Below are positions 48,571-49,395 of a DNA stretch of 60,555 nucleotides, piece after piece. Numbering within the stretch: position 1 is the stretch's first letter; every line of letters starts with the position of its first letter. The position numbers were made by a program, and so were the translations under genes. The notes beneath the pieces were generated by a model. That model did not search any database. It had not been told where the DNA came from and saw only the letters and a program-made list of their open reading frames with translations. Where the stretch lies: the IMG/VR virus record IMGVR_UViG_3300017971_000004, positions 128,001-188,555 of that record; one strand, written 5' to 3'. Source of the stretch: a virus. Lineage: Duplodnaviria > Heunggongvirae > Uroviricota > Caudoviricetes.

Positions 48571-49395
48571 TTATGCAGGCTCGTTGACGCGTTCCTCCAG
48601 CTCCTTCTGCGCGTACTTCTTGACCGACTTGTAGTAGCCGTGGCCGAGCAGGTACTCCAGGTCCGCCGTGGTCAGATCCATCTCGCGCAGCTCATCGAGC
48701 ATTTCGCGAGCACCCATGCGATCTTTCTCGTCGAGGTCGTCCCCGACGCTGGCACAGAGACCCACGACCCGAGCCGTGACCTTTTCGTCCGGATCCATCG
48801 GCTCGTTCTTGCGCTCCTCAGCCTCCTCCTCGATGGTCTTCCTGGCCTTCCTGGTCGGATTGGTGAAAGCACGCTTGTTCTGGAGATCGGACTGCGACTG
48901 GTGCGCCTCATCCATCACCTCTTCGGGCGAAACGCCCCGGCGCTTGGCAAGGTTCTGGTAGAACTCGATGTACTCGTTCTCCTCCAGCAGCCGCAGAACC
49001 GGCGGACGACGATTGACCATCTTCCGCAGATCGACCGACTGCTTGATCGCGCTGAAAGGTATGAGCTGCGTCAAGTTGAGCGGGTTCTTGGTCTTCGGGA
49101 GCAGCACGCTCTCGATCCGACCGGGAAACGTCTCGAACTGGAGCGACACCTGGGTGTTGCTCATATTCTGGACGTACACGTCCCGCTCGACCCTGAAGTA
49201 CTCGGTGAAATTCGTAATGATTGGTACGGGCTTCGGCATTTTGTCCTCCCTGGGATCTCGGTTTAACCGAATGATGAAAGGTCGTCCGTTGGCGACGACC
49301 GCCTTTCCGTTCTTGACCAGTTTCCTTGCCCTGGCAGGGTGGGTATAGGACAGAACGGTATCGTCCGGCCCCAGGACGGGAACTCGATTACCCAC
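48571..49395 (-). CDS. PLMP/RRXRR-domain protein: 52-aa PLMP-like N-terminus in frame with a 222-aa post-capsid protein (second start at ATG 49239)
   Basis: GTG 49395 has GAGGA 8 nt upstream and gives MGNRVPVLGPDDTVLSYTHPARARKLVKNGKAVVANGRPFIIRLNRDPREDK-MPKP...; ATG 49239 has its own GGAGG RBS. Confidence 0.75.
   Translation of the reverse strand: MGNRVPVLGPDDTVLSYTHPARARKLVKNGKAVVANGRPFIIRLNRDPREDKMPKPVPIITNFTEYFRVERDVYVQNMSNTQVSLQFETFPGRIESVLLPKTKNPLNLTQLIPFSAIKQSVDLRKMVNRRPPVLRLLEENEYIEFYQNLAKRRGVSPEEVMDEAHQSQSDLQNKRAFTNPTRKARKTIEEEAEERKNEPMDPDEKVTARVVGLCASVGDDLDEKDRMGAREMLDELREMDLTTADLEYLLGHGYYKSVKKYAQKELEERVNEPA

Follow-up and report, generated by a model that had tools for sequence, protein, structure and literature searches.

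A conserved PLMP-domain fusion behind the capsid gene of uncultured jumbo phages, with leader hairpins of omega-RNA type

What is the N-terminal domain of an RNA-guided nuclease doing, with no nuclease attached, at the front of a phage gene that follows the gene for the major capsid protein (MCP)? The domain in question, PLMP, is known from IscB and IsrB – the RNA-guided nucleases that are the ancestors of Cas9 – and the gene lies in the stretch of DNA analysed here (the window), the last 60.5 kb (60,555 nucleotides, nt) of an IMG/VR virus whose complete genome has 188,555 bp and direct terminal repeats. An earlier note, made from the letters of the window, had taken it for an orphan PLMP domain, domesticated by the phage, fused in frame to a capsid-operon protein and possibly acting on structured RNA just upstream. 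We find that the domain is genuine and that the fusion defines a conserved family, whose genes probably have two start sites and whose leaders appear to carry the tandem hairpins with which the omega-RNA of IscB ends. All coordinates of the PLMP gene and its leader are on the minus strand of the window, where the gene is laid out as follows:

49515-50825, minus strand: MCP gene (phrog_2522, E 4e-58), directly upstream of the PLMP gene
48571-49395, minus strand: coding sequence of the predicted long isoform, 274 amino acids (aa), from a GTG start at 49395-49393; PLMP domain, disordered linker and C-domain
49261-49383, minus strand: PLMP domain, about residues 5-45, strand-strand-helix-strand-strand; predicted local distance difference test (pLDDT) about 90
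49403-49408, minus strand: weak Shine–Dalgarno (SD) sequence of the long isoform, GAGGAA, 7 nt before the GTG
49245-49250, minus strand: internal SD, GGGAGG, within linker codons P-R-E-D, 5 nt before the internal ATG
48571-49239, minus strand: coding sequence of the predicted short isoform, 222 aa, from the internal ATG at 49239-49237; phrog_17686 type

As had been proposed, the 274-aa reading has a true PLMP domain at residues 5-52. Its match to Pfam family PF14239 (RRXRR) scores 34.2-34.5 bits (E 2-3e-8), where the gathering cut-off is 25, and covers only the PLMP part of the profile, positions 1-48 of 174; it is the single PF14239 match in the whole 188,555-bp genome. Nothing of RuvC or HNH follows, again as first read: Pfam gave no match to either family in the 274-aa protein, and the NCBIfam model guided_IscB aligned with residues 7-53 only (29 bits against a cut-off of 175). 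When a profile built from 32 members of the PLMP-fusion family was searched against the PDB, it found TbaIscB (E 2e-9), OgeuIscB (E 7e-4) and others near 1e-3, with nothing else notable, and all of these matches were confined to the N-terminal ~50 residues.

The predicted structure agrees. An AlphaFold2 model of the 274-aa protein (pLDDT 86.9) consists of a PLMP unit, a low-confidence linker (residues 45-60) and a separate C-domain, and the nine best Foldseek matches in the PDB are all IscB or IsrB chains, the PLMP model superposing on OgeuIscB (7xht) at 1.6 Å over 45 residues with 33% identity. N-domains of IF3 come next in the ranking (rows 10-12), a likeness that the IsrB paper likewise reports (PMC9581776). 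VIA, an independent all-against-all aligner, gave Z scores of 8.5-8.6, including 9k30 with Z 8.5 at 44% identity. The position-by-position agreement with the PLMP consensus claimed in the earlier note holds for the motifs H-P-A-R-A-R, L-L-K-x-G-K-A and P-F-x-I-x-L, which are kept in the PLMP-fusion family, and breaks down at the eponymous P-L-M-P residues, which read L-S-Y-T in the window protein, with both prolines lost and only the Leu kept. In OgeuIscB the PLMP motif touches both RuvC and RNA (PMC9640706); its loss here is consistent with a domain that no longer leans on RuvC.

The fusion recurs widely. A homologue search over 5.8 billion proteins returned 51 clusters. In 29 of them the proteins are 260-320 aa long, have PF14239 and align with 93-100% of the query (40-75% identity); the clusters of ~220 aa are gene calls from the internal ATG, including the public call for the window's own genome (P0001, 222 aa). 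Among the loci then fetched (29 viral and 41 metagenomic, on contigs of up to 212 kb), those holding both PLMP and the C-domain have them in the same frame with no stop between, down to 37% identity, with the exception of two split loci, L073 and L082; the most divergent homologue (L028, 35% identity) is without PLMP. In L073, on a 188-kb contig (~2000-2900), a stop after PLMP is followed by an SD, an ATG and the C-domain, while in L082 (1369-2300) a 63-aa PLMP open reading frame (ORF) and its stop are followed, after 8 nt, by a C-domain ORF of 244 aa (hhalign E 2e-50) that lies in a different frame. The L082 form, found in two samples, has no leader hairpins and follows a dCMP deaminase gene in place of a capsid gene. 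In both split forms the PLMP ORF is 63-66 aa long and the C-domain ORF lies directly behind it. Since the two parts can be separate polypeptides and still stay adjacent, PLMP and the C-domain probably act together.

Nei–Gojobori estimates of the ratio of nonsynonymous to synonymous divergence (dN/dS), from pairs at 70-97% identity, 7-9 usable of 10 and not independent of one another, were 0.15 for PLMP, 0.38 for the linker and 0.10-0.13 for the C-domain, with dS 0.9 and dN 0.13 for PLMP. (All statistics in this study treat related loci as independent, and the p-values are nominal.) Judged by these relatives, the PLMP domain belongs to a conserved family of fusions to a phrog_17686-type domain and is neither an orphan nor a relic: the word orphan has to be given up in the face of about 70 loci, while the idea of a domesticated module fares well, as relatives lack stops or frameshifts down to 37% identity and the dN/dS of ~0.15, together with in-frame conservation, argues against a neutral IS200/IS605 remnant. 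The sole named public relative is Virus Rctr197k (KX853510), with a capsid protein 58% identical. Its gene 050 (L031:4983-6122) is an intact 379-aa PLMP fusion, for which GenBank has a misc_feature without a coding sequence; its PLMP is more degenerate (H-W for H-P, P-T for P-F), and its leader has the stem-A hairpin GUAAC-CGGC...GCCG-AG described below.

How the gene is started is a separate matter. Its frame stays open between 49497 and the stop codon 48573-48571, and thus runs from PLMP into the 222-aa protein as the earlier note had said, with the GTG and GAGGAA in front and GGGAGG as a second ribosome-binding site in the linker. A 308-aa reading from a GTG at 49497 was rejected: it would cross a terminator-like hairpin and the leader, where relatives carry stops. 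In relatives the long form starts 4-10 residues ahead of V-P-V-L, some of them having stops further upstream, and its start codon is ATG in 28, GTG in 14 and TTG in 2 of 44 loci; an SD of at least 5 nt precedes it in only five of these 44.

The internal start presents another picture. In the window its ATG lies inside the linker sequence D-P-R-E-D-K-M, where pLDDT is low, and in 44 of 45 distinct loci an ATG in the same frame stands 5-16 codons ahead of the first motif of the C-domain, preceded by an SD match of at least 4 nt; a match of at least 5 nt is present in 34 of the 45, against 9.3% of positions in the same genes (p 3e-26). The linker peptides themselves are diverse (RDPREDKM, RRSLEGTM, ASIRRKNM, KGERGKVM, ITYRRIRM), and it is therefore the nucleotide signal, SD plus ATG, that is kept. 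The internal Met also coincides with the start of the stand-alone homologues in L028, phiRSL1 (ORF299) and Motura (QDH83450). A second SD–ATG pair conserved at the domain boundary is what one would predict for a dual-start gene, and we infer that one frame gives two isoforms, the short one major and the long one minor. We also observed that an out-of-frame ATG (49397-49395) overlaps the long-isoform GTG as ATGTG and opens a 44-aa ORF (49263-49397, minus strand) across the PLMP coding region; the overlap recurs in L016 and L053, and may either damp long-isoform initiation further or be due to chance.

The 222-aa remainder, with the C-domain, matches phrog_17686 (E 6.8e-7, profile positions 23-220 of 225), a family also present in phiRSL1 (E 2e-78) and Motura (E 3e-23), and the stand-alone homologues of cultured jumbo phages adjoin SbcD/Mre11-like genes. 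Many polar residues of the C-domain (N, D, R, Q) are invariant. Structure comparisons – Foldseek against the PDB, VIA wide on the full and the C-domain-only models, and the ESM Atlas – returned only uncharacterised proteins of jumbo phages, among them look-alikes in PaBG and BcepSaruman, and generic helical bundles (best Z 6.0); no nuclease fold was matched, and there was no informative match in Pfam, NCBIfam, PADLOC, the PDB or the Atlas. A relation to the genes that stand behind the capsid gene in Motura and phiRSL1 was rejected, as hhalign found none and the homologues lie elsewhere in those genomes.

Between the MCP gene and the PLMP gene there are 119 nt. The MCP-to-PLMP gene order is conserved in the clade, and in nearly all loci a long upstream ORF stops 136-255 nt ahead of the PLMP motif. 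The claim of a capsid-operon protein is accordingly sound for the window's clade and does not extend to the split forms, which have other contexts. The intergenic space of the window holds:

49467-49493, minus strand: GC-rich, terminator-like hairpin after the MCP stop (RNAfold of 49380-49530, z -3.1; intergenic sequences of relatives)
49434-49451, minus strand: leader hairpin A, AC / CCCGC / GAGA / GCGGG / AG (covariation, shuffles)
49418-49432, minus strand: leader hairpin B, GGG / UAACA / CCC with wobble extensions, containing GGUAAC
49411-49419, minus strand: the 9-mer TGGCACACC, directly after hairpin B (alignment)

In many relatives a U-run follows the GC-rich hairpin and abuts the next element; a promoter and terminator scan gave no canonical minus-strand site in the MCP–PLMP intergenic region of the window. 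Structured RNA is thus present upstream, as the earlier note had it, the relevant part being 49418-49451 and not the whole of 49329-49514. A strict parser for this leader, which demanded AC and AG around a perfectly paired stem of 4 bp or more and another hairpin 2-8 nt further on, found the tandem-hairpin element in 32 of 45 leaders, compared with 1.7 ± 1.4 in dinucleotide shuffles and with 2.7% of other segments of the same length from the same loci. The 28 distinct leaders have 21 different stem-A arms, with loops that are often GNRA or UUCG, and the pairs of stem A, counted from its base, vary in step:

Pair 1: always C-G
Pair 2: C-G 20, U-A 8
Pair 3: C-G 19, A-U 5, U-A 3, U-G 1
Pair 4: G-C 12, C-G 6, U-A 6, A-U 3, G-U 1

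A covariance model of the leaders of the window's subclade (R1) detects the element a single time in each locus and at just one place in the entire genome. The signature goes with the fusion: of 44 fused loci, 33 have it (Rctr197k is one of them), versus none of the six PLMP-less or split loci (phiRSL1 ORF298 and ORF299, Motura, L028, L082 and L073; Fisher p 8e-4). Conservation of the protein extension and of the RNA, which the earlier note had proposed to examine together, thus holds for the PLMP extension in frame and for the leader in these 33 loci.

The 9-mer TGGCACACC is nearly invariant in the window's subclade and absent from divergent members. By eye, it has no consistent complement, and a pairing partner was rejected; so was a sigma-54-like reading of TGGCAC, for which no -12 element could be seen by eye. 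The stem-A GGAG might serve as a working SD with hairpin B as a compacting spacer, in the style of T4 gene 38: this fits the divergent loci, which have 17-20 nt to the start, and does not fit the window's subclade, so that we keep it as a possibility only.

The same hairpins are found in front of bacterial IscB genes. Genes whose PLMP is close to the phage type, together with 80 from GTDB genomes, provided 69 distinct IscB upstream regions. In the IscB locus L086, a bona fide HEARO RNA (105 bits) ends 34 nt before the ATG, and the remainder reads AAC / CUGC / loop / GCAG / AG, then SD. In 42 of the 69 regions (1.7 ± 1.2 in shuffles) an AC-C[stem]G-AG hairpin with a stem of at least 4 bp lies in the last 70 nt, between the HEARO core and the start codon, typically as UUAC / CCGC / GCAA or GAAA / GCGG / AG, and many loci have a second hairpin just before the ATG, with the SD in its 5' arm and a GUAA loop (..AGGUAAC..). 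Phage hairpin A shares the flanks, the first pair and the loop types of the IscB hairpin, and hairpin B of the window contains GGUAAC, being the counterpart of the SD-bearing second hairpin of IscB loci. Structure papers put the PLMP-bound tandem terminal hairpins between the HEARO core and the start codon (PMC9581776, PMC9640706), and in OgeuIscB it is PLMP that recognises the terminal omega-RNA hairpins (PMC9640706).

A covariance model built from 28 IscB loci only (R2) and run on 276 kb of phage loci gave eight matches at E ≤10, five of them exactly on PLMP-gene leaders; that at least five of eight should be so placed has a probability of about 5e-11. The best is L027 (25.1 bits, E 8.5e-5), L058, L025 and L054 are further leader matches, and in the window the model aligns with 49417-49455, placing GGUAAC at hairpin B, as the second-best match in the 276 kb (12.1 bits, E 0.61). 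In the opposite direction, R1 gave one weak match at the right place among the 69 IscB loci (L125, E 0.043), being too specific to the window's subclade. By its sequence pattern, then, the phage leader carries the signature of the 3'-terminal tandem hairpins of omega-RNA. The earlier suggestion that PLMP acts on upstream RNA gains a concrete candidate site in this way, while binding itself stays a prediction from sequence.

Several other PLMP proteins were noted along the way. One more non-nuclease fusion (P0082, 160 aa: PLMP plus a ~110-aa tail) occurs upstream of TraL/TraE genes in two samples (L169:380-973, L170:233-826); ahead of its TTG start stands AAC-CGC-AUAAAA-GCG-AG, the hairpin signature with a stem of 3 bp. 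A PLMP-only profile retrieved 1581 representative proteins at E ≤1e-3, many of them 52-90 aa long and resembling stand-alone mini-proteins or fragments. Among the proteins so collected (P0052-P0198), P0057 has 14 PLMP-like stretches in 846 aa, and P0071 and P0077 are fragments joining PLMP to a PP-loop (SGGKDS) domain; the loci of this profile include L081, where a 65-aa PLMP ORF stands ahead of an unrelated 359-aa ORF with faint helix-turn-helix matches, and L168.

What, then, might the fusion do? We think it reasonably likely that these genes carry an exapted OMEGA PLMP–hairpin module which binds its own leader and thereby tunes or tethers the long isoform, both the binding and the two isoforms being predictions. 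In an uncultured jumbo-phage clade, a piece from the junction of an OMEGA element, made up of the last two omega-RNA hairpins, the ribosome-binding region and a PLMP of ~45 aa, would have been fused to the 5' end of a resident phrog_17686-type gene, whose own strong SD and ATG would survive in the flexible linker. One frame would then yield an abundant 222-aa short protein and, from a weak, structured site, a scarcer 274-aa long one. As in IscB/IsrB, the long form would use its PLMP to bind the two hairpins, A and B, of its own leader, and this would feed back on long-form translation, tether the protein to its mRNA, or both; feedback on synthesis would be expected because the hairpins lie at or near the ribosome-binding region of the long isoform.

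A number of observations weigh against this reading. The leader motif is missing from both split forms and from about 11 fused loci that have sufficient DNA upstream, all of which still have PLMP; either the hairpins are not the sole partner of PLMP or the parser misses diverged leaders. In the window's subclade ~38 nt separate hairpin A from the start, which makes direct occlusion of the ribosome-binding site less obvious, and the GTG of the window is overlapped by the out-of-frame ATG. The P-L-M-P residues that contact RuvC and RNA in OgeuIscB are replaced here, and the R2 score of the window's own leader is not significant, the support coming from the family.

It is possible, if on the whole rather unlikely, that the leader instead acts purely in cis, by sequestering an SD, protecting the 5' end with a hairpin or setting a spacing, and that PLMP has nothing to do with it, being a protein adaptor or binding another RNA or the ribosome, as the IF3 N-domain does. 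Eleven fused loci and two split forms that retain PLMP without the motif would be explained by this, as would the IF3-N fold likeness (Foldseek; PMC9581776), and stem A, with a conserved GAG/GGAG in its 3' arm paired to ACC(U/C)C in its 5' arm, has the classic look of SD masking. However, PLMP genes come with the same signature in both bacteria (IscB) and these phages, probably also in the conjugative-element fusion (L169); the signature is absent from PLMP-less homologues, and solved structures show PLMP binding the tandem terminal hairpins of omega-RNA. A bolder version of the module would make PLMP and the two hairpins a portable, autonomous RNA–protein unit that mobile elements have put on unrelated effectors, with the long isoform forming a stable ribonucleoprotein with processed leader RNA that acts in trans – for instance by recruiting or targeting the C-domain to nucleic acid – as a non-nuclease descendant or cousin of OMEGA; we regard this as improbable. 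Very improbable, in our judgement, is that the system is still RNA-guided in the OMEGA manner, the leader or a longer transcript guiding the C-domain as a new, non-RuvC effector. PLMP is always N-terminal to the effector in IscB, IsrB and IshB, and the C-domain combines many invariant polar residues with no known fold; yet neither window nor genome has a HEARO or omega-RNA core, TnpA is missing, the structured leader between the terminator-like hairpin and the start spans only ~45 nt and has no variable segment resembling a guide, and stand-alone homologues of the C-domain work without PLMP or leader.

Two further explanations deny PLMP any role as a protein module. If only the 222-aa protein were made, conservation upstream of the ATG at 49239 would reflect constraint on the RNA, a view that the public gene call of 222 aa (P0001) and the weak GTG start overlapped by an out-of-frame ATG would suit; we find it scarcely credible, given that conservation is at the amino-acid level while synonymous sites diverge (dS 0.9, dN 0.13), that a PLMP profile and fold are matched, that the frame is open in all relatives and that the split forms encode PLMP as an ORF of its own. 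To the view that PLMP is a neutral relic of an IscB or IS200/IS605 insertion, in frame by chance, we give next to no credence. The lack of RuvC, HNH and TnpA and the degenerate motif residues might be read that way, but the in-frame fusion in about 70 loci down to 37% identity, the dN/dS of 0.15, the confident fold and the separate PLMP ORF of the split forms from two samples speak against it, and the conservation data already refute it.

Set beside known systems, the phage fusion is not a member of the IscB/IsrB/IshB nucleases: nuclease, RNA-scaffold and transposon features were all sought and not found. It resembles IscB/IsrB, whose PLMP binds the hairpins at the 3' end of the omega-RNA (SL7/SL8 in DtIsrB), in having a domain that is homologous by hidden Markov model, profile and fold and N-terminal in both, and in being preceded by an AC-C[stem]G-AG plus GGUAAC tandem hairpin, as is bacterial IscB. 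Unlike them, it has no RuvC, bridge helix, HNH or TI domain, its locus has no omega-RNA scaffold, guide or transposon context, and its PLMP, with L-S-Y-T in place of P-L-M-P, is joined to a phage protein without nuclease signature. The HEARO RNA (RF02033) gave no match in the complete genome; no Rfam family reached its gathering score in the window, nor was one found in 47500-51000 at E up to 10; and the Y1 transposase TnpA (PF01797) is absent from the complete 188.5-kb genome, whereas the same search was positive in 6 of 14 control genomes. IshB, PLMP plus HNH in about 180 aa and the smallest OMEGA-related protein described, is similarly minimal, with PLMP and one module, but the phage partner is not HNH. 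To our knowledge, RNA use by IshB has not been established.

Other comparisons bear on the C-domain and on expression. The phrog_17686 proteins of phiRSL1 (ORF299 and ORF298) and Motura (QDH83450) have a homologous C-domain, and their stand-alone start corresponds to the position of the internal ATG; in contrast to the fusion, they have neither PLMP nor leader hairpins and stand beside SbcD/Mre11-like genes, not after a capsid gene. In-frame internal initiation gives two isoforms in lambda C/Nu3, T7 gene 4A/4B and infB (IF2 alpha/beta). The phage gene has the same arrangement of in-frame internal SD and ATG, with full-length and N-terminally truncated products predicted from sequence, yet differs in that its internal start would be the ancestral start of a gene that later gained an N-terminal module. 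Autoregulators that bind a hairpin at their own ribosome-binding site include RegA, gp32 and gp43 of T4 as well as ribosomal proteins. The logic proposed for the fusion, with a protein domain recognising an SD-like leader hairpin on its own mRNA, is the same, binding being predicted, except that the regulated product would be just one of two isoforms. IsrB has been suggested to autoregulate its translation likewise (PMC9581776).

The surroundings of the gene offered further observations. The MCP has an N-terminal extension of ~105 residues (50511-50825, minus strand), extremely rich in Arg, Glu, Pro and Ser, which lies outside the phrog_2522 match (from residue 109 on) and could serve as an arm for binding nucleic acid or as a propeptide resembling a scaffold or delta domain. 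Just upstream of the MCP gene, a 256-aa gene (50841-51611, minus strand) weakly matches the tail-tube model NF052337 (23.9 bits against a cut-off of 60) and, also weakly, phrog_18315. Antisense to the capsid module runs a 1414-aa ORF (49326-53570, plus strand) whose Arg/Gly/Leu-rich composition is typical of a spurious frame opposite real genes in GC-rich DNA. On the other side, directly after the PLMP gene, are two tandem paralogues of 153 and 148 aa (48033-48494 and 47578-48024, minus strand), both beginning MGQARET...; neither copy has a Pfam or PHROG match, and the 153-aa copy has none in NCBIfam or PADLOC. A second tandem pair of small paralogues (46692-47247, minus strand; 94 and 89 aa, M[KR]RGI..GLKRIAS...) is accompanied by small membrane or coiled-coil ORFs at 47248-47568, 46322-46684 and 45894-46325 that resemble a lysis cassette. 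The window also has one phage tRNA-Gln (anticodon CTG; 17547-17629, plus strand).

As far as we found, a conserved PLMP fusion to a non-nuclease partner with hairpins of omega-RNA type is undescribed; in the papers on the PLMP domain and IshB that our searches returned, the domain is treated only within IscB/IsrB or in comparison with Cas9, as a RuvC scaffold that touches the end of the omega-RNA. For the phages themselves, the family corrects the gene models of a whole jumbo-phage clade, in which gene callers often give the short form only and in which the fusion of KX853510 is annotated as a misc_feature; and if the binding proved specific, the pair would be a compact RNA tag and protein for engineering. 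More broadly, PLMP travels here without any nuclease, under purifying selection and mostly together with IscB-type hairpins, from which we argue that the PLMP–hairpin pair would be a self-contained functional unit. The fusion would thus offer a natural minimal system, of about 45 aa and about 35 nt, for PLMP's own role, including the translational feedback suggested for IsrB, and it bears on how OMEGA systems and the ancestors of Cas9 were assembled from modules or came to shed them.

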